64,000 bases of DNA. Source: Bacilli bacterium. GTDB taxonomy: Bacteria; Bacillota_I; Bacilli_A; RFN20; CAG-826. Both the position numbers and the translations under genes were made by a program. The notes beneath the pieces were generated by a model, which saw only the letters and a program-made list of their open reading frames with translations, was not told the DNA's origin and did not search any database. The stretch is from contig JAFSUM010000023.1 of assembly GCA_017445245.1 (NCBI GenBank), positions 6,115 through 70,114 on the forward strand, in the 5' to 3' direction. Positions 1,797 to 30,077 of the stretch are shown piece after piece (within the stretch, counting starts at the first letter, position 1; every line of letters begins with the position of its first letter).

Positions 1797-3923
1797 ATGA
1801 AAAAATCCGTCCTCGTCCTCGCCGCGGCAGCCCTCGCTTGTGCCGGCTGCGGTTTCACCGATGCCTCTAGCACCTGGGGGCAATCCTCCCAGTCCAGCAG
1901 GACCACTTCGCAATCCAACGGAACTTCCTCGCAGGGCGGAACCTCTTCCGCTTCTTCGCAAAAACCCACGGAATCCTCGCAAACGCCCGTTATTTCTTCG
2001 CAGCAAGATTCCGAGCAGGAATCGCAGGATCAATCCGCCGAGCCCGGGTCTGAACCCGCTTATGAATCCTCCGCGGAAGGCGAACCCTCCCAAGAATCCT
2101 CCGTGCCTTACGAAGAATCTTCGACCGCCCCTTCCGAACCCATCGTCTCAGACTGGACCGTCGAAGAGAAAGCAATCATCAAAGATATCCTTCGTGGCCT
2201 AGAATTGCCTTCCTTTGGCATCCATGACTACGAATTCGAGGCCGGAGAGGATTATTTCGAAGCCTATGGCATCGTTGACGAATATGATCTTGAAGGAATT
2301 GGTGCCACTCTCGAAGGCCTTGGCCTAGCGGTCGACCTCGATGAGGAATACGGCGAAATCGTCGCGACCGGTTTCTTTGAAGATTGGTCCTACGATTACA
2401 TCTATGTCGGTCTTGAAGAAGGCGAAGACGAAATCGTCATTGATATCTACGGCGCCTATTTCGAGTCCATGCCCGATTGGCCGTCCGAATACATCCTCGA
2501 AGACGCAGAATACACCGGTGTCACCGAAGAGATTCCCGCATTTGAAGGCGCGGAAGCCTATGTTTATTACCTCGGCAGCTACTATGGTCTCATCAACTAT
2601 TCTGCTATCGAATGCTATGGCGAAGGCATCAACGAACAAACTGCCCTCGATTATCTTGGAACCCTTGAAGGAGCCGGCTACACCTTCGACGAAGATTTCG
2701 GAGCTTACGTGAAGGGCGACACCTATGTCGGCATCGGTGTCACCGAGAATTGTCTTTCCATCATGGCCTTTGGCCTAAGCGGAGAGGAAGAATCCAGCGA
2801 AACTTCCAGCAGCGAGCATAACGTCGGCTGGAGCGAAGAGGAAGAAGCCTTCATCGCAAAGACCCTTCGTGGTATCGAACTCCCCTCTTTCGGCATCCAT
2901 GACTACGAATTCGAAGCGGGCGAAGATTACTTTGAGGCCATAGGTTACATCGATACCCTTGACGTCGAGGAGATGGCCGGCGCCCTCGAAGAACTCGGAT
3001 TCGCCGTAACAATCGACGAAACCTATGGAGACATCGAAGGCTATGCCTTTGGCGATGATTGGTCCTATGCCTATCTCTATATCAACTTCGAAGAAGCGGA
3101 CGAAGGATTCACCGTCGATATCTACGGCGCCTATTTCGAGTCCATGCCCGATTGGCCCTCCGCCAAGATCCTCGAAGATGCCGAATATACCGGCGTCAGC
3201 GAAGAAATCCCCGCCTACGAAGGCGCGGAAGCCTATGTTTATTACATCGGCAGCTACTTTGGTCTCATGTATTATTCCGCGGTCGAATGCTATGGCGATG
3301 ATATTACCGAGCAGACCGCCCTTGATTATGCTGGCATTCTCGAAGGGGCCGGTTTCATTTATGACGAAGAGTACTATTGCTACGTCAAAGGCACCACTTA
3401 CGTCGAAGTCTATGTCCAAGATAAATGCATGAGCGTCATGGCCTATGGCTATAGCGAAGAAGAGGAAGGCGAATGGGGCGACAAATGGGTCTTCCCCGAA
3501 GCAGGCGAAGGCATCTTCAGCTTCTTTGACGAATCTCTCCTCACCACCAAAGACGCCGCCGAATCCGTTTGGACTGCCGGAAACAGCACCTTTACCGTTT
3601 CCAAAGGCACTTCCACCGTTGATGTCGGTAACATCGGCTCGGGCAAGGAATTCTTCTCTAACCCCCTCCGTACCTACAAGAACCAAGTCATCACCATCCA
3701 AAGCGAGACCCCGATGTCTTATGTCGAGTTCTACGTGGTCGAGGACGAAAAATCGAGCGTCGAGAACTTGGGTTACACCGAGCCTAGCGTCGGCGAATGG
3801 TTTGTCGATGAGGAAGCCCAGACCGTCATCCTCACCTTCGAAGAACCGGTGACCGAAGTCTCCATCACCCTTACCGAAGGCCAGGTTCGCCTCTACTGCG
3901 CCGCCATCACCTTCGCGGAATAA
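1797..3923 (+). CDS. Highly acidic secreted lipoprotein with a Ser/Gln-rich linker and two tandem ~225-aa repeats
   Basis: Signal peptide MKKSVLVLAAAALACAGC with a lipobox-like Cys. A low-complexity S/Q/E linker is followed by a duplicated module and a C-terminal beta-rich domain. Confidence 0.75.
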   Translation: MKKSVLVLAAAALACAGCGFTDASSTWGQSSQSSRTTSQSNGTSSQGGTSSASSQKPTESSQTPVISSQQDSEQESQDQSAEPGSEPAYESSAEGEPSQESSVPYEESSTAPSEPIVSDWTVEEKAIIKDILRGLELPSFGIHDYEFEAGEDYFEAYGIVDEYDLEGIGATLEGLGLAVDLDEEYGEIVATGFFEDWSYDYIYVGLEEGEDEIVIDIYGAYFESMPDWPSEYILEDAEYTGVTEEIPAFEGAEAYVYYLGSYYGLINYSAIECYGEGINEQTALDYLGTLEGAGYTFDEDFGAYVKGDTYVGIGVTENCLSIMAFGLSGEEESSETSSSEHNVGWSEEEEAFIAKTLRGIELPSFGIHDYEFEAGEDYFEAIGYIDTLDVEEMAGALEELGFAVTIDETYGDIEGYAFGDDWSYAYLYINFEEADEGFTVDIYGAYFESMPDWPSAKILEDAEYTGVSEEIPAYEGAEAYVYYIGSYFGLMYYSAVECYGDDITEQTALDYAGILEGAGFIYDEEYYCYVKGTTYVEVYVQDKCMSVMAYGYSEEEEGEWGDKWVFPEAGEGIFSFFDESLLTTKDAAESVWTAGNSTFTVSKGTSTVDVGNIGSGKEFFSNPLRTYKNQVITIQSETPMSYVEFYVVEDEKSSVENLGYTEPSVGEWFVDEEAQTVILTFEEPVTEVSITLTEGQVRLYCAAITFAE
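2154..3503 (+). repeat. Intragenic tandem duplication, 2 x 675 bp
   Basis: The unit starting at the W codon 2154 recurs at 2829, exactly 225 codons later. It shares long near-identical stretches such as LPSFGIHDYEFEAGEDYFEA and DIYGAYFESMPDWPS. Confidence 0.85.
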
Positions 3924-6122: not shown

Positions 6123-6132
6123 TTCGACACAA

Positions 6133-6175
6133 AAACGACTTGGAATCCTTGCAGAAACCAAGTCGTTTTCTTTTT
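6133..6175. terminator. Bidirectional hairpin terminator between convergent pepO and the sensor-kinase gene
   Basis: An 11-bp stem, AAACGACTTGG (6133-6143) pairing with CCAAGTCGTTT (6158-6168). It is flanked by an A-run on one side and a T-run on the other. Confidence 0.65.
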
Positions 6176-7433
6176 AACCTTCCGTGATTATCGGGGTTCT
6201 ATTGAAAGGATTCCCTTCGCTTCGTTCTGGTGCGAAACGAATCTCGATCATCGTTCCGCCTTCGTTGGAATCGATGCTCATATGCCCGTTTTCAAGAAGA
6301 GAAACGCGCTTCATGACGTTGCTTAAACCGATGCCACGGCTATTGGAAGGAAGAGGCTGTCCTTCACCGTTATCCGAGACTTGGATCAAAGCGATGCCAT
6401 ACTCCTCGCGTTCGCGGATGCGGATGGTTCCATCTTCCTGATGGACGATGCCAGAATGCTGCAACGAGTTCTCGACTAGGGGCTCTAGTAGCATCGGCGG
6501 AACGGGCAACGAGCCATCTTCCACGTCCAAGGAAAGTTTGATGTTATAGCCGCTGTCGACGTTATGAAGGGCGATTAAGGATTGGATGATTTGAATCTCT
6601 TCCGATAATGGAATAAACGGCGTATCGATGGTCTTGTAGATGCGTTTTTCTAGTTCGCGCAATTCGCCTAAAAGCTCCGTTCCTTTTTCGTTCGATTCGT
6701 GATAAGCCACGCGAACATTATTCAGCGCGTTCAAAAGGAAGTGTGGTTGAATCTCTTCCTTCAACGCTTTCTCTTCGATGCGGGAGAGCACCATTTCCTT
6801 CTGGGCCAATTCGACATTGGTCTTTTTGACCTCCCACAAGGAATGGATGAGGCTATAGCCTAAACCAACCAGCAAGGAAACAATCGAGTAGACGTTGGCA
6901 AACGAGATACCGCCTTTCCCAGGCAAGAAGCCACAGGCCGCGTTAAAGAAGGCTAATCCGATGGAAAGATAGATGGAGAAGGTCCTCGAATCTTTCGAGA
7001 TGAAAGCAAACACGAAACCTGTTAAAGCCAAAATGGCGTAGGCGACAAAGCGTACCGATGGAATAAAGGCCATGACGAAGGCAATCAAGAAGATGACCAA
7101 TGACGTGATGGTTTTGGGTTTATTGTCGCCATTAAATAAGGCCAAAGCACCCATCAAAATCCATAACGGACCGATGGCTTGTTCACTCCAAAGGGTGGGG
7201 TCAAAGAATAGAAACAAAGCCAAAATGATACCGATAACGCCATGATAAGCGTTCTTTAGAGGCGGAATACCAAAGGACAGGGCGCTAGAAAGAAGGCAGG
7301 TAAGGGCCCCAAGACCAATCAGGAAATAGAAGACGGTCGAAGCCCATAAGCGCGGAACGAAATAGAGTAAGAGGAAACATGCCGCGATGGAGATTAGAAG
7401 CGGAATAAGACGAGTAAGACGGCGCTTCATCAT
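6174..7433 (-). CDS. Membrane sensor histidine kinase, LytS/YesM type (PF06580-like His_kinase plus HATPase_c)
   Basis: About 6 N-terminal TM helices, H-box IQPHFLLNALNNV, N-box PMLLEPLVENSLQHSG and G-box SDNGEG/GIGLSNV. Its start ATG overlaps the upstream stop as ATGA. Confidence 0.85.
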   Translation of the reverse strand: MMKRRLTRLIPLLISIAACFLLLYFVPRLWASTVFYFLIGLGALTCLLSSALSFGIPPLKNAYHGVIGIILALFLFFDPTLWSEQAIGPLWILMGALALFNGDNKPKTITSLVIFLIAFVMAFIPSVRFVAYAILALTGFVFAFISKDSRTFSIYLSIGLAFFNAACGFLPGKGGISFANVYSIVSLLVGLGYSLIHSLWEVKKTNVELAQKEMVLSRIEEKALKEEIQPHFLLNALNNVRVAYHESNEKGTELLGELRELEKRIYKTIDTPFIPLSEEIQIIQSLIALHNVDSGYNIKLSLDVEDGSLPVPPMLLEPLVENSLQHSGIVHQEDGTIRIREREEYGIALIQVSDNGEGQPLPSNSRGIGLSNVMKRVSLLENGHMSIDSNEGGTMIEIRFAPERSEGNPFNRTPIITEG

Positions 7434-9232
7434 TGTCTTTCCCTCCTTCGAATCTCAATTCTGCCCGGCGTATGTTTCACATAAAGCGAGACCAACGAAA
7501 TACGTTCTTGCAAGGCCCGCATGACCTTTGGATTCACTTTCATTCGCTTAGGGAAGGAGAGAAGCACGCTATTGCGGGTCTCCCCGAGAATCAGAATCTC
7601 GCCTTCTCTTAATTGTTTCGAGAGGTCTTCAATAAGCGTTTCGAAAAGAAGAGGCGGGACCTTTTTCTCACTTTCTTCGACGTCGAGAACCAAGGCACCA
7701 TAGCCGCCTTGGACAGCTTGCCGCAAATCGAAGAGCTGGCCTTCGAGTTCGCATTCTTCTTCGAAACGGATCGCGTCTTCGCGTAAGGCTAAAAGGCGTC
7801 TTCTTGTAATGCGAGAATATGTCAATAGACGCTTATCGCCAATGCGAAGAGACTTGCCATATCCATCCTCGATATAGTCTAGCGTAGCGACTGCGTCCGA
7901 GGCATTAGATGCCCGGGATAAAGCGCGGCTAGAAACCTGATGGTAACGGCGGGTAAGAATGGCTTCGTCTTTTTGCCTTAAGGAATCAAAATAGATTTCG
8001 TGGAAGGCAGAGGCTAACGCGACAAGACAAGTGATAAGAGATAAGGCCGCAGGATAAGCAGAATAGGAAACGAAAGTATGGTTTGATAAGGCAAAACTTA
8101 GATTCATGGCGATGCTGCCTAAGCTCGCATATAAGACCGAAGGCTTAGCTCCACCGCTTCCCCTAGCGAAGTGAACCAAGTGACGGAACAATAGGTAGAT
8201 CGGCACCGACCCAAGCACCGTAAAGCAATAGACCGCGGCATCCGAACCTAACGTCGCGAAGCAAGCAATCGTGGAGATGGCCAAAAGGAATAACGTAATG
8301 ATACGTTCCGGGAAAAAGAGGACCTTTTTGCGAGTTAATCGCTCATAAAGCAATACAGACAGGATCATGATGACAAAGGACAATATCAGCAGCATCGTGA
8401 AGACTTTGCCACCGTAAAATAGCCCTGCCCCGACAAAGGGAGAGTCAATAGAGAATACGAGGAAGAGAAGACTTCCACCCGCAAGCATACCAAGCGCAAC
8501 CATGACGACTCTCTTTAAGGAGAGCCAGACACCCAAGACGGTAAAGATCAAAACACCAATAATCACGCCTAACGAAATCAGGGCGAATGGTAACGTTGAA
8601 ATACCGGTAATAAGTGACTCTTCAAAATAGATCGTGCCAATCTTCTTTGCACCCCCATCGCCCGTATTCCCGACTTCCATAACATACTCAACGATGCCAG
8701 AGGCAGGCACGACATAAGGGTTCGCAACTTCATGGGATAAATCGACGAACGTGGATTGGAATGCCTTGCTTGGATAACCGATTTCGGAACATAGAGTTCC
8801 ATTAAGATATACGCGGTTGGGAATCTCGATAACAGGATAGACATGGATGGTCTCTCCAGGTGTCAATCCATGAATGAGATAACGGTAGCTTGCATAGCCT
8901 GTAGAAGCATAGCCTTCGCCTTTTCCCGTCCAGTAGCCTGGGGTAGGCAAATAAACCGTTTCTTCCGGCACTTCTAGAGCAGGTTCAGAGTAAAGCCACT
9001 GATTGTAGTAAAACTCGACATCGCCATGGATATACTTGGCAACTTTCCCTAGATTATGTTTGTTGCTCGCGTCCACCGCCCCGTGGTCCACTTGGACGAC
9101 CTGGTCCTGCGAGACGAGGTTCTGGACGATGTAGACGGTAAAAGGAACGAGGAAAACAGCCAAGGCCAATATAATGCCGAAAACACGCCGGTTTCGGCGT
9201 GTTTGGGTCTTTTTCGGGGTTTCTAAGGCCAA
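7430..9232 (-). CDS. 7TMR-DISM-type membrane receptor with a degenerate LytS-like kinase domain (pseudo-kinase)
   Basis: TTG start at 9232 lies 8 nt after AGGAGG. Signal anchor, extracellular 7TMR-DISMED2-like domain (YWTGKGEGYASTGYASYRY, RVYLNGTL) and 7 TM helices. The C-terminal VPPLLFETLIEDLSKQL resembles an N-box but lacks the Asn. I could not find an H-box. Confidence 0.65.
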   Translation of the reverse strand: MALETPKKTQTRRNRRVFGIILALAVFLVPFTVYIVQNLVSQDQVVQVDHGAVDASNKHNLGKVAKYIHGDVEFYYNQWLYSEPALEVPEETVYLPTPGYWTGKGEGYASTGYASYRYLIHGLTPGETIHVYPVIEIPNRVYLNGTLCSEIGYPSKAFQSTFVDLSHEVANPYVVPASGIVEYVMEVGNTGDGGAKKIGTIYFEESLITGISTLPFALISLGVIIGVLIFTVLGVWLSLKRVVMVALGMLAGGSLLFLVFSIDSPFVGAGLFYGGKVFTMLLILSFVIMILSVLLYERLTRKKVLFFPERIITLFLLAISTIACFATLGSDAAVYCFTVLGSVPIYLLFRHLVHFARGSGGAKPSVLYASLGSIAMNLSFALSNHTFVSYSAYPAALSLITCLVALASAFHEIYFDSLRQKDEAILTRRYHQVSSRALSRASNASDAVATLDYIEDGYGKSLRIGDKRLLTYSRITRRRLLALREDAIRFEEECELEGQLFDLRQAVQGGYGALVLDVEESEKKVPPLLFETLIEDLSKQLREGEILILGETRNSVLLSFPKRMKVNPKVMRALQERISLVSLYVKHTPGRIEIRRRERQ

Positions 9233-9248
9233 GGCGAAAGCCTCCTAA

Positions 9249-12200
9249 TTAGGCCTTCTTCTTTTTGATGGAGAGCGATTTCATCGTATCGTCGATGAGA
9301 CGGAACGCCTGCTTATAGGATTTGTCGGAGATGACTTTGATATAAGCGGGAAGATCTTTGTATTTCTTCGAACCAGTGTCGTCGTTGACCATCATCTTCG
9401 TGCCAGCGTAGACCTTGGGGTCAATCGCGGTATTGAGACGGAGGTGGACGCCACCGATCGAGATGGCGGCAACGGTCTTCTTGCCAACGCGGTATGCATC
9501 ATAGCCGAAGGAGACGCGGTGCGCGCAGCCATAGGTATCGATGAGATATTTGGAGAGGCCGTCGTATTTTTCTTTGATATCCTTGCCGGAAGCTTCGACC
9601 TTTTCTTCGAAGGAAACGGTATGGATGGAATGGAGGGAGTCGTCGCTGGTGCCAGGACCGAAGGCAGCGAGTTCGCGGGTCGGATCAAGGCGTTCCGTGT
9701 TGCGCGGACGGGAGATGATCGGACGCTTTGGAGCAGGCGCGGGTTCTTCAACCTTCTTCGCCACGATTACTTCTTGCTTCGGCTCGGGTTTGGGTTCGGG
9801 CTTTGGTGCCGGTTTGGGAGCTGGCTTAGGCGCAGGTTTCGGGGCGACCTTCTTCACGGGTTTTGGCGCAGGCTGCGGAGCGGGTGCCTTACCCTCATAG
9901 AGGACGTGCTGCACGCCATCGATTTCCATGATGACGGTCTGGTCCTCGGTGATTTCAAGGTTAATCGGATCCGGTTTTGGCATATCTTCTTCCTCCTCTT
10001 CACAGGGTTCAGTAATGATTTCAGGCTCAGGGAGTCCTTTTTCAACGAGATGTTTGGCGGCAAGACGGGCAGAATCGACGCGGTTTTTGGCGTCTTGAAT
10101 CGCCGCTTCCTCTTCGAGGATTTTGCGCTTTTCCGCTTCGAGGCGTTCTTCCTCGGCTTTGCGAATAGCTTCTTGCTTGAGGCGTTCCTCATCGTGGAGG
10201 AGTTCCTGCTGATAGTCTTCTTCGGTAATGCCTTCGACGAGAACGTCATTATAGAGTTCGGGCACGCGGATAGGCGTAGGCGTATTCATGAAGCCGCCGC
10301 TGGAACCGAGCATCGTCGGGTTCGGGTTGAATTTGACGAAACGATGGAGTTCGCTGGCTTCGACGATGTCCTTGTCATAAGTGTCTTCGACCTTATCGAT
10401 AAAGGAGAAGCCCGCATTGTGAAGGACTTTGATCGCGGCGAGGTTAAAGTCGCCAGACTGGGCCCAGACGAGGTCGAGGTGGAGGGCGTTGAAGGCGTGA
10501 TCGACCATGCCGACCATCGCTTCGGTCGCATATCCCCTGCCCCAATAATCGGGTCCGATGAAGACTTCGATCTTGCGGTGGGAGAAACGGCGGTAGCCAT
10601 CTAGCATCTTTTCTTCTAGCCCAATGACACCGATAAGGGCGTTATCTTCCTGACGGATGATCGCGCGGTAATCGCGGTTCATGAAGCGGTCGAGAAGAAG
10701 CTGGCAGGCATCCAGATCAAGCGGATGGCGTTCGCCCATCATTTCAAGCGGGCCACTCTTCTTGGTGATTTCGAATAGAGCGTTCAAATCGTCGCCATCA
10801 AAGGTACGGAGCAACAGGCGTTCCGTCTCGACTTCTGCGGTCGTACGGAGGACGTTGAGGATGAGGGTTTCCTTTTTGGAGTCGGAACCCGTGGGCGAAT
10901 GTAGACGCTTCACCCAGATCATCTCGTTGCGGAACTCGTCGCTGCCAATTTCGACGAAAGCATAGACCGAGTCGCAGTTGGGGCAATAGAAGTTGCCGTC
11001 TTCGTTCTCGCCATCCATATACGCACCGCAAATGGGGCAGATACGGGAATACGTCCACGCGTCGCCACGCAGGAACGTAAGGCAAGAACGAACCATATTC
11101 TCGAGGTTTGCGTCGATTTTGGAGATATTCGGGTTCGCGATAACCGCGCCGCGTTCAGAAACGAGAGGTTCGGCGGTGAGGACGAACGCGTTTTCATAAT
11201 CCTGCTCGGGGGTCATGCGGTGGAAGACCAAATGATTGATTTCCGTGTCCAAATCATCGACCGTCGGAATCTGGTCGGTAAGGCCTGGCATGAAGTCGAG
11301 GCAAACGCGGCTACGGCGCTTTCTCGAACCGGTGGGCAGATGTACCAAACGAGTATCGGAAACGGTATAGATAATCGATACCTGGGTCGCCGAATCGCGT
11401 TTGAATTCAGCTTTAAGAGGTCCGCGCGTCGCCGTGATCGCATCGACGTTTATATAGCCGTTCGCGTTCAAAGGAATGAAATCGGAGCTAAGTTTGAATC
11501 CGAGTTTTTTATAGACCTCGAACAAACGCTCCAAAGCCCAGTTGCAATAGCCGGACTGGATGAGTTCGTCTTTCTTATGCTGCTCTGTCGAATAGTTAAG
11601 CAACTTCATGTAGAACTGGAAGCAAGCCGCATAGTTACGGTCGCCAATCAACATGTTGGTCGCGTGGATATCCGAATCGCTTAAGGCCTTCGCTTTCTTT
11701 ACTTCTTTATAGAAAGGAGTCGAAACCGAGTGGGAAAGGATACGCTGCGCATCGAGCAACTTACGGAGAGTTGCGATAATCGGGTCATCCTTGTCGGTCA
11801 ATAGTTCCGACGCGTTCATGATCGGATTGAGGGCATCGGGCGTTTCTTTCTGCAAGAAAGAGAGGTCGAGTGGGTCAATCTTAGCATCCGCGACGTAACG
11901 GGAAAGGAACTTCGGCTGGCTATAGAGTTCGGCAAGGCTATGCGAGATGAAGGAACGCATCTTGTCGATAAGCGCGACGACAAAGCGGTTCTCGTAAATG
12001 GCATAGTCCGTTTCCGAGGTATCGCTATAGATGTATTCGGGCAACATGCGGTTGTCCTTTTCTTTCCAGAATCTAGGAACCTTGAGGGTCATGATGACGT
12101 CATCGTTAGCGATACGGACCGCCTTTTCGGCCTGTTTGACTTCCTTATATACCTTAAGATGAGTACGGGGCTTCGAGACGATCGCCATGATGTTCTCGGT

Positions 12201-12389
12201 TACGGCGGTGAACTCGGGGATCCAAGGATAGGATTTGGATTCGTCGTAGGTCGAGGCCGTGGCAGCAGGCGCGGAGAAAGCACCGACGCGCTCGTCGATC
12301 GGCGTGTTCAAAGAGACAGTGCCTCTTTGCTCCAAGCCGCCTTGGTAGGCGTGGATGAACTCCGGTAATGTGATGGTATCTTTCGCCAT
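9249..12389 (-). CDS. Multidomain protein: McrC/DUF2357-like N-terminus, Zn-ribbon, GNAT (RimJ/RimL-like), coiled coil, PAPKP repeats and a conserved C-terminal domain
   Basis: DYAIYENRFVVALIDKM resembles the DUF2357/McrC N-region. Also present: CPICG..x..CPNCDS ribbon, GNAT core IEVFIGPDYWGRGYATEAMV, an EEERLEAEKRK coil and (PAPKP)n. It sits directly downstream of a McrB-like gene. Confidence 0.55.
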   Translation of the reverse strand: MAKDTITLPEFIHAYQGGLEQRGTVSLNTPIDERVGAFSAPAATASTYDESKSYPWIPEFTAVTENIMAIVSKPRTHLKVYKEVKQAEKAVRIANDDVIMTLKVPRFWKEKDNRMLPEYIYSDTSETDYAIYENRFVVALIDKMRSFISHSLAELYSQPKFLSRYVADAKIDPLDLSFLQKETPDALNPIMNASELLTDKDDPIIATLRKLLDAQRILSHSVSTPFYKEVKKAKALSDSDIHATNMLIGDRNYAACFQFYMKLLNYSTEQHKKDELIQSGYCNWALERLFEVYKKLGFKLSSDFIPLNANGYINVDAITATRGPLKAEFKRDSATQVSIIYTVSDTRLVHLPTGSRKRRSRVCLDFMPGLTDQIPTVDDLDTEINHLVFHRMTPEQDYENAFVLTAEPLVSERGAVIANPNISKIDANLENMVRSCLTFLRGDAWTYSRICPICGAYMDGENEDGNFYCPNCDSVYAFVEIGSDEFRNEMIWVKRLHSPTGSDSKKETLILNVLRTTAEVETERLLLRTFDGDDLNALFEITKKSGPLEMMGERHPLDLDACQLLLDRFMNRDYRAIIRQEDNALIGVIGLEEKMLDGYRRFSHRKIEVFIGPDYWGRGYATEAMVGMVDHAFNALHLDLVWAQSGDFNLAAIKVLHNAGFSFIDKVEDTYDKDIVEASELHRFVKFNPNPTMLGSSGGFMNTPTPIRVPELYNDVLVEGITEEDYQQELLHDEERLKQEAIRKAEEERLEAEKRKILEEEAAIQDAKNRVDSARLAAKHLVEKGLPEPEIITEPCEEEEEDMPKPDPINLEITEDQTVIMEIDGVQHVLYEGKAPAPQPAPKPVKKVAPKPAPKPAPKPAPKPEPKPEPKQEVIVAKKVEEPAPAPKRPIISRPRNTERLDPTRELAAFGPGTSDDSLHSIHTVSFEEKVEASGKDIKEKYDGLSKYLIDTYGCAHRVSFGYDAYRVGKKTVAAISIGGVHLRLNTAIDPKVYAGTKMMVNDDTGSKKYKDLPAYIKVISDKSYKQAFRLIDDTMKSLSIKKKKA

Positions 12390-12415
12390 GGCTACGATAA
12401 AGTTCCTTTACGAAA

Positions 12416-14812
12416 TTAGGAGAGTTTGCGGTTATATTTCTCGATGAGGGCCTCGGAGAGTTTGAGGGTGCCTTTGCCGTAATATTGCTGCAGATAACGG
12501 CTCAATTTGACGAGGCCGTTCTTGACGAAGGACTCAAAGTGGCCGTCTAACTTACGGAGAATCTTACGGGCGAGCATGAGGTCGAGAGCCGCCTCTTTGG
12601 TACCGCCCAAAGCGACGAAGACCGGCACGAAGCGATCGATCTGGTTCATGATACGGTTACCAAACGCGAGGTCGAAGGTCTCGCCGATGAACATGGTGAG
12701 TTTCATGAACTTGGTACGCTCGGCTTCGGTGAGTTGGTTTTCCTTGTGGGCCATGGCCTCGTTGATGCAGGTGGTGAGTTCCTCCATCGTCAAAGGATAG
12801 GGGCTGTAATCCCAGTCGGAAGTGAACGGAAGGTTCAAGTCGTTGAACTCGATGACGATCGCACGGTCATAAACCTTATCGGTAATGGTGAAGGTCGAGT
12901 CGTCAGTGTTCGCGGTACCGATGAACCAGGTGTTGGTCGGAATACGGACTTTGCCGTTTTCGATGAATCTCGGAACGGGGGTGCCGAGTTTGACCTGCAT
13001 CAAAGGAATGAGCCAGTCCTCGGGTGGATATTCGAAGATGGAGAGGAAGTCGGCGAAATAGTACTCGATACGGGAGATGTTCATTTCGTCGAGGACCATG
13101 ATGTTCATCTGATCGGGGAAGTAGGCCGCTTCATAGAGGTGCTTAAGGAGTTCGGTTTCCTTGAACTCGCCGGTGAAGTCGGAATAGTAACCGACGATAT
13201 CGGAACGGTCACGCCAAGTGGCTTGAACCGGGAAGAAGAAGGCTTTTCCGCCGATGTATTCGAGGAAGACACGCGGCAAGGTCGATTTACCGGTACCGGA
13301 AAGGCCTTGGAGGATGAGTAGACGCGAGGAGCTGAAACCAGCGATCCAAGCGCGGATGGTATCGATGGGGAAGTAATACTTCTGGTGGCAGAGATAGGAC
13401 TGGAAGCGATAGGCCAACGTCTTGAAGTCCTTGTAGGTCATGGTGACGTGGTTCTTCTTGGCTTCCTCGAAGCGCTTACGGTCTTCTTCACCCAAAGCGT
13501 TCTGAACGGCGGTGCCGATGACCGCGGTGTTCTTCTTGGGCTCTTCGGGATTCTCTTCGAGGTTGGCTTCTTCTTCAGCCTTACGGGCAGCTTCTTCTTC
13601 AGCGAGGCGCTTTTCTTCTTCAATGCGCGCCTCCTCGTCGAGAAGGATCTGAGGCTTTTCAGGCGTCGGGGCACCTTCACGAAGAGCTTTGCCACAGGCT
13701 TCTTCGTATTCAGCCTTGGCCTTAGCTAGTTCTTCTTCATGAGCCTTACGGTCGGCTTCTTCCTGTTTCTTACGCTCTTCTTCGGCGTAGATCTCGTCCC
13801 ATTTATGGTCGATGACGGTCAAAGCGGGGAAGAGATCGCCGGAACGATCTTCGTCTTTACGGCGCTGACCACCGACCAATTGATTCATGCCCTGAATCTT
13901 ATTGGGGTCGACGTTGACTTGGAGATTGGAGAAGTCAACGCGACTAAGGGCGTCTTGGCCAAGGAGAGCATAGTCACCAGGCAGGGAGAGACCTGCGTCG
14001 CGGCGACGTTCGGCCGCAGCGGCTTCAGCAGCGGCTTTGAAGTCCTGATAGTCGCCCGTGGTCATCATGGTCTTGGCAACGGACTGGGCAAAGCCAGCGA
14101 GCAAACGTACCAAGGCACGCAGGATGAGTATGATCAAGATGAGGGCGAGCAAGACGCCGACGAGCATCGCGAGAACGATGCCGGTGGCCATCAAGACGTT
14201 GAGGAAGACCGGACCTTGAGTCTTGGCGAGGTCTTCGCTGGTGAGCTGTTTGATTAAGTTGGTCCACGGGAAGAGAACCGCTGAGACGGTCATACCAATA
14301 AGGATGATGACAATCCAGGTGATCCACCACTTAACGTTGAAGCGAATCTTCCAGTCGGAATCGACGGGTTTGCCTTTCGCAAGGCGCTTATTGTAACGGC
14401 GGATATAAACCGGTTTGCGCGTCGAGATGGCAAATAACAAGGGGACGCCGATAAGGGTCGCGATGCCAAACAAGGCCCACGATGTCATGTAGACGTCGAA
14501 TTGCTTGATGCCGAAGAACTCGAAGAAGGAGCGAACGGCGGGCAAATCCAGCCACTGCGGACGGATCGAGTTACTGACGTCGATGAAAAGCATCGCCAGC
14601 AAGATGACGAGCCAAATAATGGTGATCGTAAGGCTAATGGTAAAAGGTGAATTGTACCAAGCCTTTTTCTTAACTTTGTTCTTGCGAGATTTTTGGGCTT
14701 CCTTATCCAGGTCGCCCTTTCCTTCAATGGTCTCGCTCTCAGCGGGTGCTTGTTCCTCTGCAGGTTGTTCCAAAGCCAGCGTCTCTTCGTTCGACGGGTT
14801 TTCACTAGCCAT
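12416..14812 (-). CDS. Membrane-anchored McrB-like AAA+ (AAA_5) NTPase with a long charged coiled-coil linker
   Basis: About 4 TM helices lie in the first 250 aa, followed by an E/K/A-rich linker. Walker A GLSGTGKS, VLDEMNISRIEYYFADFLS (compare McrB DEINRA) and FIGTANTDDST..DRAIVIEF (compare McrB MNTADRS) are present. Confidence 0.7.
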   Translation of the reverse strand: MASENPSNEETLALEQPAEEQAPAESETIEGKGDLDKEAQKSRKNKVKKKAWYNSPFTISLTITIIWLVILLAMLFIDVSNSIRPQWLDLPAVRSFFEFFGIKQFDVYMTSWALFGIATLIGVPLLFAISTRKPVYIRRYNKRLAKGKPVDSDWKIRFNVKWWITWIVIILIGMTVSAVLFPWTNLIKQLTSEDLAKTQGPVFLNVLMATGIVLAMLVGVLLALILIILILRALVRLLAGFAQSVAKTMMTTGDYQDFKAAAEAAAAERRRDAGLSLPGDYALLGQDALSRVDFSNLQVNVDPNKIQGMNQLVGGQRRKDEDRSGDLFPALTVIDHKWDEIYAEEERKKQEEADRKAHEEELAKAKAEYEEACGKALREGAPTPEKPQILLDEEARIEEEKRLAEEEAARKAEEEANLEENPEEPKKNTAVIGTAVQNALGEEDRKRFEEAKKNHVTMTYKDFKTLAYRFQSYLCHQKYYFPIDTIRAWIAGFSSSRLLILQGLSGTGKSTLPRVFLEYIGGKAFFFPVQATWRDRSDIVGYYSDFTGEFKETELLKHLYEAAYFPDQMNIMVLDEMNISRIEYYFADFLSIFEYPPEDWLIPLMQVKLGTPVPRFIENGKVRIPTNTWFIGTANTDDSTFTITDKVYDRAIVIEFNDLNLPFTSDWDYSPYPLTMEELTTCINEAMAHKENQLTEAERTKFMKLTMFIGETFDLAFGNRIMNQIDRFVPVFVALGGTKEAALDLMLARKILRKLDGHFESFVKNGLVKLSRYLQQYYGKGTLKLSEALIEKYNRKLS

Positions 14813-14860
14813 AACAACTCCTCCTCAAAAATAAAGGTATCCGTATAGGTGCTTTGTTAA

Positions 14861-14889
14861 ATTTTAGGTTTCATCGGCATTTTATGCAA
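14861..14889 (-). promoter_or_regulatory. SigA-type promoter of the four-gene operon
   Basis: On the minus strand: TTGCAT (14889-14884), a 17-nt spacer, then TAAAAT (14866-14861). RBS GAGGAGGAG precedes the ATG at 14812. Confidence 0.5.
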
Positions 14890-15032
14890 CTGCATAAATG
14901 CAACGCACGTATACGCGCGAGGACTTGGCCGACTCGAGAAAACCAAAAATAACCGAGATTTGCCGATAAAACTCTGCAGAAAAAACCATAAAACGAGTTT
15001 GATAAAACGTTCCGGTAAATAAGCCAGACATG

Positions 15033-15057
15033 AAAAAGCCTCGGGATTGCCGAGGCT
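15033..15057 (-). terminator. Rho-independent terminator of the surface-protein gene
   Basis: AGCCTCGG-GATTG-CCGAGGCT, with a T-run on the minus strand (A-run at 15033-15037). Confidence 0.7.
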
Positions 15058-15073
15058 TATGAAGGTTTATCGA

Positions 15074-16768
15074 TTAGGCCTTTTTGCGTTTCTTGGCAAG
15101 AAGGATCATGCCTCCCACGGAGACAAGGCCAACGGTCGCAAGGGCGGCTAGGAGGAAGACGTTGGAATCTTTGTTCGCACCGAAGTTCACGGCCATGGCT
15201 TTGTGGAAGCCAGAAGTGTTATCGAATTCCTGACCATTCGCAGTTGCATAGGCGACGCAACGAGCATAGGCATCAGCATAGTTCTCGGCAGTAAACTCAG
15301 ACTTGTCGGTAACGTTACCCCAAACTTTGGTCACCTCGCTATAGAAGTCTTTGCAATCATAGCTGGAGGAAGATTCGAAATCATTAAGGAACCCGGCAAA
15401 TGATGCAGCTGTTTCTTGTTCCCAAACAATCGAGATGCTTGTCAGGTACATGGCACCGCTATTCGAACAAAGGCCAAGGTAATGATAGTTGCCGGTAAGT
15501 GTCAGCGATGTTGACGTTCCGTTCACAATAGAACCTAATTTCGTTCCCTGTGTAGAAGAATCGTAAAGCCCGGTGGCGGCAGTATAAGGGGTGTTTTTAC
15601 CATAGATGTTCAAAGTCCTTCCCGCGGCGGTCGAAGAATTCCAAACAACGGAAACCGATTTGGCAACTTTTCCAGCCGAAGTGATGACAATACCAGAATT
15701 ACTGTTGCTGCTTCTCAATTGAATACTGGAATTACCGCCGGCGCATTGTCCGCCATACTTAGCCGTAGAGCCAGATTTTGTGAATTCCGTGATATCGGCA
15801 TATGAAGTTCCAGACACTCCAGTGTCACTCAATGTAATTACATCGGTAACAGTCGTAGGCTCAGTGAGACCGGTAACGGTGAAGGTATGAGATGCACTGA
15901 TGCTGTTATCTTCTTTAGAAGTGCAAGTGATCGTCACGCCTTCCGGAGCGTTATCAAGGAAACGGACGGTCGCGACTTTATTCGTGGTGTCAACGCTGTC
16001 AATGACGGCAACGCTTTCTTTACTGGAAGTAAACGTAACCGCCTGAGTGCCTTCAACATCTTCATATCCGACTTCATATACGATTTCGGTCGTAACGGAA
16101 CCTTTGACGCCGGAAGTGATCTCGTCATCTGCCGCTAAGGTAATCTCAGTAGGAACGGGTGTTGGTTCAGAGATCGCTGAAGAAGATTCAGATGAAACTA
16201 CTTCAGAGGAGGTCGGTGTAGATTGCTTTTTATAAAATTCGAATGACTGATCTTTTATATTGTTATTGATAGAAGTGTAACAACGCCAATCTTGCGAATT
16301 GTAAATGCCGATATAACGTCTAGTAGCGTTGTTATAGAGATAATTATTACTAATGGAGAAAACATTATTAGAATTGTCGCCGACTCTGACACCATTGTTG
16401 GCATTCGTGCAATAAAGGTAAGAGTCTCCTGTGCCAAATTGGTAATTGGAGCCATCGACGGTGACCGTCCAAAGCACGGTCTCCGCAGGATCGGTAATCT
16501 TATCTGCACTCACCGTCACAGAGATCGCGGACGGTGCGGTGGAAGTTCCGTTATTGTTAGCGAGAGCGTATGATCCACTGCTGTTGACACCAACGACAAC
16601 AACCTCGTCGCCAGTCGCCAAATCGGTAATGGCGACCTTCCCGTACGCATCTGCGGCTTTCGTTTCGACGGCATTATTCCCGAAAGCGCTGACTCCAACG
16701 GCAGTAGCCCCGCCAACCATGGCGAAGGCCGCTAAGGCAAGAATGGTGTTTTTGAGATTGATCTTCAT
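15074..16768 (-). CDS. Cell-surface protein with signal peptide, Ig-like (Big_2-type) domain and C-terminal TM anchor
   Basis: ATG at 16768 (MKINLKNTILALAAF) lies 7 nt after GGGAGG. A Ser-rich linker and a Big_2-like segment (AVTFTSSKESVAVIDS..ATVRF) follow. The C-terminus is hydrophobic plus KKRKKA, with no LPXTG motif. Confidence 0.7.
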   Translation of the reverse strand: MKINLKNTILALAAFAMVGGATAVGVSAFGNNAVETKAADAYGKVAITDLATGDEVVVVGVNSSGSYALANNNGTSTAPSAISVTVSADKITDPAETVLWTVTVDGSNYQFGTGDSYLYCTNANNGVRVGDNSNNVFSISNNYLYNNATRRYIGIYNSQDWRCYTSINNNIKDQSFEFYKKQSTPTSSEVVSSESSSAISEPTPVPTEITLAADDEITSGVKGSVTTEIVYEVGYEDVEGTQAVTFTSSKESVAVIDSVDTTNKVATVRFLDNAPEGVTITCTSKEDNSISASHTFTVTGLTEPTTVTDVITLSDTGVSGTSYADITEFTKSGSTAKYGGQCAGGNSSIQLRSSNSNSGIVITSAGKVAKSVSVVWNSSTAAGRTLNIYGKNTPYTAATGLYDSSTQGTKLGSIVNGTSTSLTLTGNYHYLGLCSNSGAMYLTSISIVWEQETAASFAGFLNDFESSSSYDCKDFYSEVTKVWGNVTDKSEFTAENYADAYARCVAYATANGQEFDNTSGFHKAMAVNFGANKDSNVFLLAALATVGLVSVGGMILLAKKRKKA

Positions 16769-17004
16769 ATTCAATCCTCCCATGAACGAAGCCATTCTCA
16801 TTAGGAGGCGCCTTCACTTACGGATAGGAGGCCTCACAACAAACAAAATAAGCGGCTTCGCTTTTGGCTATATTATACATATAAAACGCATGCACGCGGG
16901 TGTAAGCGCTTCCAAATAGGGGCCTAATCCGGATAATCTCGATGACATCGAAACTATATTTTGCCTACTTCTTCTAGAGCAACCCTCTATAGAGGGGTAT
17001 TATC

Positions 17005-17769
17005 ATGCTGAAGATGAACGCGAATCCCCTTATTTCCATTGTTACGCCCCTCTATAACGCCGAGGCTGTTTTTGAAGGCACATTTGGTTCCGTAATCGCC
17101 CAAACGTTCAAAGACTTCGAATGGGTCATCGTCGACGATTGTTCCACCGATGAATCTTTTGCTTTGGCAGCCAAACTCATTGAAGGACATCCAAACATTC
17201 GTCTATTCCAAATGCCCCATAACGGCGGTTCCGCCAAGGCCAGAAATAAAGGCCTAGATGAAGCCAAAGGCAAATATGTCACGTTCCTGGATGCCGATGA
17301 CGTGCTCGACCCCGATTATCTTGAGAAGCAACTCGCTTTCATCAAAGACCATGGCCCCATTATCTCCAGCGCCTACCGCCGGAAGACCGAGCAAACCTGC
17401 ACCACCTTCACGCCCCCTGCCGAGACGACATACAAATCCATCCTTAAAGGCAACCCCTTGTCCTGCCTTTCCACCATGTATAACCGCGAAGTCTTCCCTG
17501 AGGATCGCTTTCCCGAAGACCTAACCCGTCATGAAGATTTCGTCTTCTGGGCCCGCCTTTTGAAGAAGGGTTATAAAGCAATTAGTAACCCCGAAGTCTT
17601 GGCCACCTACCGCCTTCAATCCAACTCCAAAAACAGCGACAAAAAGAAGCTCATCAAACCCATGGTTCAGGCCTATCACAAAGGCTTAGGAATCAATATC
17701 ATTACAAGCTGGTTTTTCACCGCTAGATACGTGTTTTATAGCCTAAAGAAATATAAAGGTGTCCATTAA
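17005..17769 (+). CDS. Glycosyltransferase family 2
   Basis: ISIVTPLYNAE...VIVDDCSTDES...FLDADD motifs are present. Confidence 0.85.
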   Translation: MLKMNANPLISIVTPLYNAEAVFEGTFGSVIAQTFKDFEWVIVDDCSTDESFALAAKLIEGHPNIRLFQMPHNGGSAKARNKGLDEAKGKYVTFLDADDVLDPDYLEKQLAFIKDHGPIISSAYRRKTEQTCTTFTPPAETTYKSILKGNPLSCLSTMYNREVFPEDRFPEDLTRHEDFVFWARLLKKGYKAISNPEVLATYRLQSNSKNSDKKKLIKPMVQAYHKGLGINIITSWFFTARYVFYSLKKYKGVH

Positions 17770-17819
17770 AAAGACGTGGTTTTTGCATGAAAAACTCGCC
17801 ATTTCGGCGAGATTTTCAT

Positions 17820-18821
17820 TTATTCTTCCTTGAGTTCCCTGGTCATTAATTCCAAGACGGCTTCGGATGGTTTTTTGTTCTCGTACAGGACCTCGTAAAC
17901 CGCATCGGTAATCGGGGTTTCGATGCCTGCTTTCTTAGCTTCGAAATGGATGGTTTTCGCGGCTAGAACGCCTTCGACAGTTTTGGTGTTCCGAGCTAAG
18001 ACCGGGGCAGCTTCATCTTCCTTGCCGATATCAAGGCCCAGCGTGTAGTTACGGGAACGATGGCTAGAACAAGTAAGCGTAAGGTCCCCTACGCCGGTAA
18101 GCCCAAGGAAGGTCGGAGCCTTCGCGCCTTTGGCTAAGCCGAAACGGGTGATCTCTGCAAGGCCGCGGGTGATAAGAGCGCTTCTAGTGTTATCGTGATA
18201 ACCAAGGCCCTCCATGATGCCCGAAGCGATGGCGATGATATTTTTCATGCCCGCGCCGATTTCAGCACCGACGACATCGGTCTGAACATAAACGCGGAAC
18301 GAAGCGGAAGAGAAGAGCTTCTGAACGAACTTAGCAGCTTCCTTGTTTTCGGAGACGGCGCAGATGGCGGTAAGGTCATCGTGGATAACGTCATGGGCAA
18401 AGCTAGGGCCAACAAGAGATACAACTCCGCCATTCTTGTTCTTCTCGTTGAGACGTTTCTCGATGAGGAAGGCAATGCCTTCGCCCGTCACCGGGTCAAA
18501 GCCCTTGATAACGTTGATGATAAGCGGCGTGGTGTCGCAGTGCTCGACAATAAGATCGACAATGTTGTTAATTTGACTAGAAGGAACGGCGAGAAGGAGA
18601 ACGCTTGCGCCTTTAAGCGCTTCGGCAGCGTCAAGCGTTGCCGAGATAGATAATGGAAGCGTTACGTCGTCAAAGTAACGGCTATTTTGGTGATGCTCTA
18701 CGATGTCCGTCACTTCGACGGGATCTTTGCCATACATCAAAATGCGGTTATTCGGATCTTTGCTAAGGGCATAAGCAAGGGCGGTGCCCCATGCGCCCGT
18801 TCCTAAAACAGTGATATTCAT
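17820..18821 (-). CDS. gpsA: NAD(P)H-dependent glycerol-3-phosphate dehydrogenase
   Basis: MNITVLGTGAWGTALA Rossmann start at 18821. The family is conserved throughout. The track's 46-aa 5' extension is unlikely to be real. Confidence 0.9.
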   Translation of the reverse strand: MNITVLGTGAWGTALAYALSKDPNNRILMYGKDPVEVTDIVEHHQNSRYFDDVTLPLSISATLDAAEALKGASVLLLAVPSSQINNIVDLIVEHCDTTPLIINVIKGFDPVTGEGIAFLIEKRLNEKNKNGGVVSLVGPSFAHDVIHDDLTAICAVSENKEAAKFVQKLFSSASFRVYVQTDVVGAEIGAGMKNIIAIASGIMEGLGYHDNTRSALITRGLAEITRFGLAKGAKAPTFLGLTGVGDLTLTCSSHRSRNYTLGLDIGKEDEAAPVLARNTKTVEGVLAAKTIHFEAKKAGIETPITDAVYEVLYENKKPSEAVLELMTRELKEE

Positions 18822-18983
18822 GTCAAATATTATCTTTTCGTACTCCTTCTTTGTAAAGAAAGGGCCGCAGCAATCACTTTCCACGAGAATGGCCGGGGGA
18901 TTCTTTCTTATTTTCCAGGAAGGGTTCATGATAACCTTTGACTGCATTAATGCTATCATAATAGACGCGGCAAGGAGACTGCT

Positions 18984-19259
18984 ATGAGAACCTGGGAAGA
19001 TTTCAAGAACAAAGCCAAGAACGGCAGCGAACTCGTTAAAGCCGATATCGAAGAAGCAGAAACGCTCACAAAACTAATCGGGGCGATTATTCAACGCCGA
19101 AACGAACTCGGCATTTCACAACGAGAGTTGGCCGCATTATGCGGATTGCCCCAATCTTCCGTTGCCCGAATCGAGGCGTGCTGCGTCAAACCCAACGTTG
19201 GAACCATGTTACGAATCATGAAACCGTTGGGCTTAACCCTATCGGTAGTTCCGGCCTAA
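18984..19259 (+). CDS. XRE-family HTH protein (antitoxin-like size)
   Basis: HTH_3 core LGISQRELAALCGLPQSSVARIE. RBS AAGGAG lies 7 nt upstream. Confidence 0.8.
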   Translation: MRTWEDFKNKAKNGSELVKADIEEAETLTKLIGAIIQRRNELGISQRELAALCGLPQSSVARIEACCVKPNVGTMLRIMKPLGLTLSVVPA

Positions 19260-19264
19260 AGGAA

Positions 19265-19297
19265 AGGCGCGTGTTCGTCACACGTGCCTCTTTATTT
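19265..19297. terminator. Hairpin between the convergent HTH gene and glf
   Basis: AGGCGCGTG (19265-19273) pairs with CACGTGCCT (19281-19289) with one mismatch, followed by a T-rich tail. Confidence 0.45.
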
Positions 19298-19300
19298 CGG

Positions 19301-20404: not shown

Positions 20405-20424
20405 GATTCCTCCTATTGGATATA

Positions 20425-21288: not shown

Positions 21289-21299
21289 AACAAAGGTCC

Positions 21300-22082: not shown

Positions 22083-22083
22083 A

Positions 22084-22932: not shown

Positions 22933-23075
22933 CCATTATAGACGTAACGGGGAGGAATGTAAAAACTCCCACGCACGACATGAGCCTACGCGCCTAACCA
23001 TAATGCGCACTTTGCGCGACCCGTGTCATGACGCTATAATCAACATACTCTCCACGTTGAGGAGGGAGGTGTTTT

Positions 23076-26768: not shown

Positions 26769-26772
26769 ACCC

Positions 26773-29926: not shown

Positions 29927-29949
29927 AAGCATACCTCCGAGTGTATTTT

Positions 29950-30016
29950 TTCATAACTCTTCATAACTTTCAATTTCTTTCATAACTTCGAAAATCTTTC
30001 ATAACTCTTCATAACT
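29950..30016. repeat. Five copies of the 9-mer TTCATAACT in the leader/promoter of the ATPase gene
   Basis: Copies start at 29950, 29960, 29979, 29998 and 30008, giving symmetric spacings of 10, 19, 19 and 10. A 20-bp block, TTCATAACTCTTCATAACTT, occurs twice. Confidence 0.85.
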
Positions 30017-30019
30017 TTT

Positions 30020-30056: not shown

Positions 30057-30077
30057 ATATTCCTGCCGCTAGAACGC

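Follow-up and report, generated by a model that had tools for sequence, protein, structure and literature searches.

NTPase pairs of the McrBC type are among the commonest defence modules of prokaryotes, and in McrBC the N-terminal (DUF2357) domain of McrC plugs into the McrB ring and stimulates it. To our knowledge, nearly all of the McrBC-like examples studied so far are soluble DNA cutters. Here, we analyze a four-gene block in a 64,000-nucleotide stretch of contig JAFSUM010000023.1 (positions 6,115 to 70,114 of the forward strand; assembly GCA_017445245.1), which belongs to the metagenome-assembled genome (MAG) of an uncultured gut “Bacilli bacterium” and is hereafter called the window, its own numbering being used throughout. 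The block consists of four tightly packed open reading frames (ORFs) that fill positions 6174-14812 on the minus strand, and these are predicted to encode a membrane-anchored McrB-like AAA+ protein (gene 1; accession MBQ7250417.1), a McrC-like protein fused to a GNAT acetyltransferase (gene 2), and two sensor proteins (genes 3 and 4). The reading that we prefer, with roughly even confidence, is that the block represents a clade-specific, membrane-embedded derivative of the N-x-D branch of McrBC-like systems, which has been joined with an envelope-sensing two-component module and works as a signal-gated conflict or stress system.

The closest described systems are those of Bell et al. (2024; PMC11090510, eLife 13:RP94800), and in the portion of that paper drawn on here the N-x-D pattern defines a branch of McrB-like GTPases that includes coiled-coil fusions to the GTPase, while McrC homologs with Zn ribbons and with a missing or inactivated nuclease are also described. 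One clade, CoCoPALM, is characterized there by an FtsB-like transmembrane (TM) and coiled-coil anchor, and two-component genes are said to be frequent in the same operons, the detail being deferred to a later paper. A preliminary description of the present locus had regarded a membrane-bound McrBC-type module connected to envelope sensors as something not yet described, which was too strong a statement, as the TM and coiled-coil anchors and two-component genes reported in these parts of Bell et al. (2024), together with the candidate system PDC-M26A of PADLOC, precede it. Given the membrane or coiled-coil McrB fusions and kinase-associated McrBC relatives in that portion of the paper, the system is unusual, yet not categorically new. 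The four-TM anchor, the GNAT acetyltransferase, the YdhG-like adaptor candidate and the pair of pseudokinase and LytS-type kinase are not mentioned in the part of the Bell et al. (2024) text drawn on here, and the accession of gene 1 is absent from the supplements examined, as are CoCoPALM, GNAT and kinase terms.

The sequence features of gene 1 (12416-14812; 798 aa) identify its product as a predicted McrB-type AAA+ protein in which four TM helices and a charged spacer replace the usual DNA-reader domain of McrB. Four hydropathy peaks (aa 59-77, 113-131, 163-181 and 212-230) define the TM region (aa 59-230; 14123-14638), and no modified-DNA-binding domain is present at the N-terminus, which is made up of these helices and the spacer. 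The spacer (aa 233-457; 13442-14116) has a length of 225 aa, close to the charged coil of about 200 aa proposed in the preliminary description, but the strongly charged, Ala-rich part is restricted to about 120 aa (aa 336-457; 49% D/E/K/R, 16% Ala), and its composition is the ground on which it is presumed to be a coiled coil. The AAA+ domain (aa 458-798; 12419-13441) contains a Walker A motif (GLSGTGKS), a Walker B motif (VLDEMN) and a McrB-type Asn/Asp signature (GTANTDDS), and the best PDB sequence match of the family profile, extending from Walker A through the signature motif, is McrB of Escherichia coli (6hz4). In addition, tblastn searches retrieved plasmid-encoded ATPases with 28-40% identity to gene 1 that score above the AAA_5 cut-off; in each case a gene for a DUF2357 protein comes next, and the DUF2357 partner on the Lactococcus plasmid p275A (L032; related loci and proteins are denoted by L and P numbers) carries PDDEXK_7. 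The McrB-like identity and the four-helix anchor noted in the preliminary description therefore agree with both motifs and hydropathy. Gene 1 and all of its relatives also match the PADLOC model PDC-M26A (E 1e-32 to 1e-44; 4.5e-43 for gene 1), although the match of gene 1 spans only part of the 724 positions of the model.

Within the signature motif, N178 and D180 are invariant and the following residue is either D or E (window, L003, L021 and L030-L032), giving the pattern N-x-D-[D/E]. HMMER also aligns the NTDD of gene 1 without a gap to the NTAD of McrB, so that an alignment of the single sequence is ambiguous; the N-x-D assignment is preferred over N-x-x-D because position 4 varies between D and E among the relatives, and it refers to a conservation pattern rather than to a phylogeny. 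The AAA+ domain is 65-70% identical to those of two-gene relatives and 94-98% identical inside the four-gene group. A multi-pass TM anchor (three to five hydropathy peaks, mostly four) was found in every homolog from gut Bacilli and in none of the plasmid relatives. Two variants of gene 1 were observed, which may be real disruptions or assembly errors: in L002 (5468-7994) the homolog is split into overlapping ORFs for the TM and spacer region (441 aa) and the ATPase (421-470 aa), and in L026 (1589-3226) the spacer region is gone, although it is present in the same species at L027.

As in McrBC (E. coli; 6hz4, 6ut6), the gene of the AAA+ NTPase comes first and is followed, here after 26 nt, by that of a DUF2357 partner. 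The McrC-like region of gene 2 (9249-12389; 1046 aa) occupies aa 1-445 (11055-12389) and comprises DUF2357 (PF09823; aa 65-157, 31.3 bits against a gathering cut-off of 23.3) with an invariant IYENRF motif, and then an alpha/beta region. An AF2 model of aa 1-510 (pLDDT 77) has McrC chains among its top Foldseek matches (6hz4_M at probability 0.80, then 6ut6_G and 6ut5_G), which, together with the above-threshold Pfam match, bears out the earlier suggestion that gene 2 starts like McrC. The Zn ribbon, GNAT domain, PAPKP-type repeats and extra C-terminal domain listed in the preliminary description were each recovered as well. The Zn ribbon (aa 447-475; 10965-11051; CPxC...CxxC, with C451, C454, C469 and C472 invariant) is matched by ribbons of the eL43/L37Ae type. 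The GNAT domain (aa 524-661; 10407-10820) matches Acetyltransf_3 with 72.8 bits (E 6e-20), and among solved structures it is closest to SpeG spermidine N-acetyltransferases (E 1.5e-8). The acetyltransferase is apparently intact, and the pyrophosphate-binding loop for acetyl-CoA (GxGYA) is represented by WGRGYA, aligned with QGYGYA of SpeG 6vfm. A linker (aa 690-905; 9675-10322), in which a charged helical stretch is combined with the conserved segment PINLEITE...VLYEGK and with APKP/EPKP repeats, leads to the C-terminal domain (Cdom; aa 915-1046; 9252-9647). Neither a signal peptide nor a TM helix is predicted in gene 2.

What gene 2 seems to have lost is the nuclease. No PDDEXK Pfam match was obtained for gene 2, no invariant D...(D/E)xK was found in an alignment of 24 homologs, and the sole candidate catalytic Asp (D365) is missing in eight of these 24, including P0024-P0027. 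An active McrC nuclease is rejected on this alignment, in which no D/E-x-K is conserved. Regarding the fold of aa 300-445, a profile of the N-terminal part of gene 2 (g2N) compared by hhalign with the PDDEXK_7-bearing Lactococcus partner gave a non-significant probability of 1.3%. Gene 2 is thus predicted to keep the N-terminal domain of McrC and to differ from McrC in the absence of the conserved PD-(D/E)xK residues and in the presence of a Zn ribbon, a GNAT domain and Cdom. A 386-aa ORF at 9444-10604 on the plus strand lies antisense to gene 2 over the GNAT and linker regions; it seems conserved in relatives only because the opposite strand is the conserved gene 2, and it is probably no real gene.

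Both proteins share features with the N-x-D branch as presented in the consulted sections of Bell et al. (2024), namely the N-x-D-[D/E] motif, a long charged and probably coiled segment ahead of the NTPase domain, and a McrC homolog with a Zn ribbon and without an active nuclease. By the same sections, the HEPN or other nuclease gene or domain that defines CoCoNuT was not found in or beside the present operon, and no methyltransferase occurs at the operon, in contrast to systems of the branch. CoCoPALM resembles the locus in having a TM anchor, with the charged spacer of gene 1 and the charged helical stretch of gene 2 as possible counterparts of the coils that both CoCoPALM partners carry, but a comparison with the published description, as far as it is covered here, sets four TM helices on gene 1 against a single FtsB-like helix; moreover, the Pfam lists of the neighboring genes contain no signal-peptidase family, and no pilus genes are present.

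In contrast to McrBC, the pair in the window is co-transcribed, by prediction, with sensor kinases. The product of gene 3 (7430-9232; 600 aa, TTG start) has a single TM helix, followed by an ectodomain (about 180 aa; aa 36-215), by some seven further TM helices that form a bundle (aa 217-413) and by a degenerate His_kinase/HATPase core (aa 427-600). The C-terminus is homologous to the kinase core of gene 4 (hhalign 96.7%, E 3e-10), but other residues stand in place of the phospho-acceptor His and of the N-box Asn, and the G boxes are absent, which identifies gene 3 as a predicted sensor pseudokinase. The ectodomain has a conserved, beta-rich signature and belongs to an unclassified family. The preliminary description had proposed a 7TMR-DISM receptor with a degenerate kinase; the second half of this proposal holds, and the first does not, as gene 3 and its 14 homologs have no Pfam match and the 7TMR-DISM models (7TMR-DISM_7TM, 7TMR-DISMED2) fail even at E<=5, the similarity being limited to the layout of an ectodomain followed by about seven TM helices. 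No PDB sequence match was found for gene 3 either. Gene 4 (6174-7433; 419 aa) has about six to seven TM helices, a His_kinase domain (PF06580, 45.4 bits; aa 220-293, with H231) and HATPase_c (PF02518, 32.2 bits; aa 316-401). As H231, E321-N322, D354xGxG and G367xG are invariant across five orthologs, gene 4 can be regarded, as proposed earlier, as an intact LytS-type histidine kinase.

With its multi-TM input domain, PF06580 and HATPase_c, gene 4 is comparable to kinases of the LytS/YehU/BtsS type, and gene 3 would be its paralogous, catalytically dead partner, similar to the pseudokinase co-sensors of such kinases. The large gene 3 ectodomain of an unclassified family, for which no 5TMR-LYT or 7TMR-DISM Pfam match exists, distinguishes the pair from LytS-type systems. 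A second difference, from LytS/LytTR systems, concerns the response regulator (RR): directly after gene 4 in L014, L016 and L028, a convergent gene encodes a 264-aa regulator with a REC domain and an OmpR/KdpE-like winged helix, not LytTR.

The four genes most probably form one transcription unit, judging from their spacing and from the conservation of their flanking signals. Genes 1 and 2 are separated by 26 nt, genes 2 and 3 by 16 nt, and genes 3 and 4 overlap by 4 nt (ATGA), exactly as given in the preliminary description. A Shine-Dalgarno sequence, AGGAGG, lies 8 nt ahead of the TTG start of gene 3, which is consistent with the N-termini of 14 homologs; it begins 2 nt past the TAA of gene 2 and, contrary to what had been stated, does not overlap this stop codon. 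A putative sigma-70-type promoter (TTGCAT-17-TAAAAT; 14861-14889, minus strand), read from the sequence and from its conservation, precedes gene 1. It had been described as a single good promoter, yet no more than 8 of its 12 hexamer positions agree with the consensus, and a consensus scan did not report it. Both hexamers are kept in L013, L015 and L007 although the upstream regions have otherwise diverged, and L014, L016, L026, L028 and L029 share an equivalent sequence, TTGAww-17-TAAAAT. The terminator of the upstream surface-protein gene (15036-15058, minus strand; nine pairs, six of them GC, then a T run) marks the 5' boundary of the unit. At the other end, an intrinsic terminator shared with the convergent M13 peptidase gene (6125-6170, minus strand) consists of a 13-bp stem and then UUUUUGUGU; the hairpin has a folding energy of -21.4 kcal/mol (z = -5.35) with a U tract behind it. 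Spacing, ribosome-binding sites, terminator and conserved promoter all agree with the promoter-to-terminator unit proposed earlier, and the packing is no chance arrangement, as the gene order, gene 2-gene 3 gaps of 11-17 nt and the 4-nt overlap of genes 3 and 4 recur in L013-L016 and L026/L027.

A short, partly palindromic conserved element was observed at about 14884-14905 (minus strand), directly ahead of the -35 hexamer, which it overlaps, and it is a candidate operator for the response regulator. It reads CAyATGCGyAAyGyG in the group of L014, L016, L028 and L029 and GCATTTATGCAGTTGCA in the group of the window, and the same element is present at about 4330-4350 of L014 and upstream of the Cdom gene in L028 and L029.

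The order and spacing of the block recur in conspecific contigs and in at least six other lineages (L013, L014, L015, L016, L026 and L027), with gene 3 identities to the window of 57-62% (L013, L015), 38% (L014), 34% (L016) and 35% (L026, L027). Co-occurrence of the four genes in other genomes, which the preliminary description had named as a test of its own proposal, is thus borne out, at gene 3 identities of 34-62%. The block is found in two chromosomal contexts, between a surface-protein gene and the M13 peptidase gene or between a GatCAB-epimerase neighborhood and a hydrolase gene, and it has therefore moved as a unit, the move to a new chromosomal site having taken place in the lineage of the window. 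A scan with strict peptide patterns detected gene 1 relatives in 8 of 185,579 species-representative genomes, all of them uncultured gut MAGs assigned to Bacilli, “Mollicutes” or Erysipelotrichaceae, and a metagenome scan with the gene 3 profile recovered only L014 and one fragment. Comparison of L013 and L015 with the window revealed that the core pair (gene 1, 84-85% identity; gene 2, 77-80%) evolves slowly and the sensors (gene 3, 57-62%; gene 4, 60-62%) evolve fast, the identity of housekeeping neighbors being 70-86%.

Comparison of these loci also revealed that the block can be resolved into modules, which are gene 1 with g2N (A), GNAT (B), Cdom (C), and genes 3 and 4 with or without the RR (D). 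In all other loci of the pair, the TM-ATPase and a DUF2357/Zn-ribbon protein (g2N, about 440-520 aa) occur without the kinases, either alone (L018, L021, L022), beside a probable toxin-antitoxin pair (L006, L019, partly L020) or with a Sel1-repeat gene (L003, L017, L023), and Abi as well as toxin-antitoxin genes adjoin some of these two-gene loci. Conversely, the order in L028 is epimerase, a stand-alone gene for linker and Cdom, gene 3, gene 4, regulator and hydrolase, without gene 1, g2N and GNAT; L029 has epimerase, a stand-alone Cdom gene and gene 3, within which the contig ends. With respect to L016, both differ by a clean indel of about 5 kb (gene 1-g2N-GNAT) between the common promoter and Cdom, so that the content of the epimerase-hydrolase spot is present, absent or variant among L002, L014/L016 and L028/L029. 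The stand-alone Cdom gene is preceded by a promoter and a neighboring conserved element that have their homologous counterparts before gene 1 in L014, L016 and L026, and for this reason one promoter is likely to drive everything down to gene 4. The coupling of the McrBC-like pair to the sensors that had been proposed earlier is consequently real as a co-occurrence but not obligatory, as some loci have the ATPase/DUF2357 pair only and others the Cdom/kinase module only.

Cdom, a domain of about 130 aa without a Pfam match, is the sole part that was found joined to both halves of the locus. Its model (AF2, core pLDDT 76-91) is of moderate confidence and resembles YjbR 2fki, YdhG 2oc6 and 9t2w in Foldseek (probability 0.89-0.95; target-normalized TM-scores of 0.49-0.53), which points to a YdhG/YjbR (DUF1801)-like fold. 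One to seven copies are independently fused to other DUF2357 proteins (P0029, P0030, P0081, P0088, P0090), and in L002 a separate gene of 593 aa, with the arrangement GNAT-Cdom-Cdom, follows the ATPase/DUF2357 pair. Stand-alone Cdom proteins have 223-292 aa and fall into nine clusters at 90% identity (P0070-P0078), which, like those of L028 and L029, begin at the PINxEI segment. Because Cdom is fused to DUF2357 proteins and also stands alone upstream of gene 3, gene 4 and the RR, it is taken as the link of the two halves. Copies of Cdom match the C-terminal 120 or so residues of the PADLOC PDC-S18 models. An exhaustive search, needed to reveal the family because a word-indexed search gave only short proteins on short contigs, collected 1532 representative proteins with Cdom at E<=1e-3. 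The family is uncharacterized; Cdom is usually present as two to seven tandem copies, the proteins reach a length of about 2800 aa (P0081-P0228), and a scan of 65 carriers revealed a terminal uL15-like Ribosomal_L27A domain in 13 and DUF2357 in five.

Several further observations concern the surroundings. The nearest non-Bacilli relatives of the gene 1 ATPase belong to a different conserved set of four genes, whose products are an AAA protein (about 1050-1100 aa), a hypothetical protein (about 490-535 aa), a McrB-like ATPase of the N-x-D-E type without TM helices (about 790-824 aa) and a DUF2357 protein (about 610-705 aa). This set is located on the Deinococcus plasmid p96k (L030, 1-9122), on a Rhodoferax plasmid (L031, 1-8876) and in L033 (MT835511, 470-11190), its carriers being plasmids and one unverified fecal phage scaffold. 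In the window, the block is flanked by genes for two surface proteins without a Pfam family. One is a Ser-rich lipoprotein of 708 aa that contains two repeats of about 200 aa each (1797-3923, plus strand), and the other is a protein of 575 aa that carries a signal peptide as well as a TM anchor at its C-terminus (15074-16801, minus strand) and shares only 54% identity with its L013 homolog. A large wall-polymer gene cluster at 17000-33000 borders the operon and includes genes for GT2, UDP-galactopyranose mutase, DUF4422, an ABC-2 exporter, a Wzy_C-like protein and a 1230-aa CDP-glycerol glycerophosphotransferase. Strain-level variation was seen a few kilobases from the operon: the conspecific contig L007 (287-930) has an HTH_3 and Gp49 (HigBA-like) pair beside a glycerol-3-phosphate dehydrogenase gene, and the strain of the window has the HTH_3 gene alone at this site (about 18960-19300). 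Two origins were considered and rejected. Recent horizontal acquisition finds no compositional signal, and the divergence of genes 1 and 2 is like that of their neighbors; a phage origin finds no relative in IMG/VR, and only on two unverified fecal “Bacteriophage sp.” scaffolds is there a distant relative, which has no TM helices.

In the signal-gated system that we favor, gene 1 would form a membrane-tethered ring whose NTPase is turned on by the DUF2357 domain of gene 2, and the GNAT domain, whose nearest solved relatives acetylate polyamines, would replace the lost nuclease as the output activity. Cdom would dock gene 2 on the sensor complex of genes 3 and 4, whereby an envelope signal would gate the machine. 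This chain is modeled on McrBC structures and on gene-fusion logic. Phage adsorption or injection, damage to the wall or to polysaccharide, and a glycan ligand of the gene 3 ectodomain are candidate triggers, and in relatives that keep the regulator the envelope signal may also control transcription of the operon. The likeliest role would be a conflict or defence-type response, possibly abortive, rather than DNA restriction. Hints of a defence role come from the McrBC ancestry, the PADLOC matches (gene 1 to PDC-M26A, Cdom to PDC-S18), the variable chromosomal spot, and the Abi and toxin-antitoxin neighbors. The stronger proposal, that the locus is a new signal-gated immune or stress machine in which a McrB-like ring and an acetyltransferase-delivering activator are docked via a YdhG-like adaptor on a pseudokinase/kinase sensor, appears unlikely to us.

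A number of results weigh against a signal-gated conflict system. Pfam AAA_5 reaches 17.4 bits on gene 1, short of the cut-off of 22, AAA_16 is likewise below threshold, and the match to McrB 6hz4 is marginal (E 0.034). Gene 2 and its homologs match no PADLOC model, the PDC-M26 partner included; PDC-M26 and PDC-S18 are themselves candidate systems only, and a literature search found no description of either. No RR is encoded in the window (tblastn with the L014 regulator), as the preliminary description had said, although that statement does not extend to the relatives L014, L016 and L028. No homolog was found in IMG/VR, and the neighbors across the loci are mostly teichoic-acid and polysaccharide genes. 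Genes 1 and 2 are as slow as their housekeeping neighbors and native in base composition, a pattern that resembles vertical inheritance more than a mobile defence island. Finally, the contact of Cdom with genes 3 and 4 and acetylation as the output are steps that we purely infer.

The same results can be read in other ways. The two halves of the block may be independent units that share a transcript by history only, a nuclease-less McrBC-like pair and an ordinary two-component system for nearby envelope or polysaccharide genes, with Cdom as accessory protein, gene 3 as co-sensor, gene 4 as kinase and a regulator. In that case, Cdom would have become fused to gene 2 when a segment encoding ATPase, DUF2357 and GNAT was inserted behind the promoter of the two-component system and ahead of its first gene. 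The existence of each module without the other, the clean indel of the 5-kb gene 1-g2N-GNAT segment between the common promoter and Cdom, the much faster divergence of genes 3 and 4, and the glycosyltransferase, epimerase and hydrolase genes in the flanks would all be accommodated. This account explains less well why Cdom-DUF2357 fusions exist in several architectures that have no kinase context in the protein (P0029, P0030, P0081, P0090 and a neighbor of L002), as the number of different DUF2357 and Cdom architectures argues that the link of Cdom with McrC-like proteins is no one-off accident; the fused four-gene form, moreover, persists at gene 3 identities of 34-62% and moved as a block in the lineage of the window. 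On balance, independence of the two halves seems unlikely. The recurrent location of the locus inside teichoic-acid and polysaccharide neighborhoods also suggests a housekeeping envelope machine, in which a membrane AAA+ motor and an acetyltransferase tune the synthesis or export of a surface polymer under a glycan-sensing kinase pair. Strong purifying selection on the ATPase domain (65-70% identity family-wide, 94-98% in the four-gene group), a native base composition (G+C of 0.475-0.54 over the block, the same as in the flanks) and a beta-rich gene 3 ectodomain signature, which may be compatible with a carbohydrate-binding module, would fit such a function. Against it stand the very sparse distribution in the strict-pattern search (8 of 185,579 species representatives), the lack of a signal peptide or TM helix in gene 2, and the plasmid-borne McrBC-like systems with nucleases that are the nearest wider relatives; in addition, the close relatives L028 and L029 lack gene 1 and g2N at the same locus, which is unexpected for an essential function, and we consider a housekeeping role quite improbable.

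The kinship of the two core proteins with McrB and McrC raises the question of a classical Type IV (McrBC) restriction enzyme that cuts modified DNA. Such an enzyme is disfavored, to the point of being very improbable, by four TM helices instead of a DNA-binding N-terminal domain in gene 1, by the lack of both a PDDEXK Pfam match and a conserved D...(D/E)xK in gene 2, and by the N-x-D-[D/E] type of the gene 1 signature.

The locus shows three changes to the motor/activator pair of McrBC-like systems: a membrane anchor, an acetyltransferase together with no recognizable nuclease site, and a link to envelope sensors through protein fusion and a shared promoter. The natural variants offer a ready-made dissection, as the pair alone, the pair with GNAT-Cdom, the full fusion with kinases, and Cdom with kinases only are represented, with variants occurring at one chromosomal site, and the proposed coupling is directly testable because these module variants exist. 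If the link is functional, the locus would provide a testable model for how an outside signal passes to an AAA+ effector, and it would suggest a role for a widespread, uncharacterized YdhG-like repeat domain that is present in >1500 representative proteins. If the stronger proposal of a new signal-gated machine is true, events outside the cell or in its envelope (phage attachment or glycan damage, for example) would activate an AAA+ effector directly, and the block would be the first case of a two-component sensor gating a McrBC-derived system post-translationally and the first case of acetylation as a McrBC-type output.

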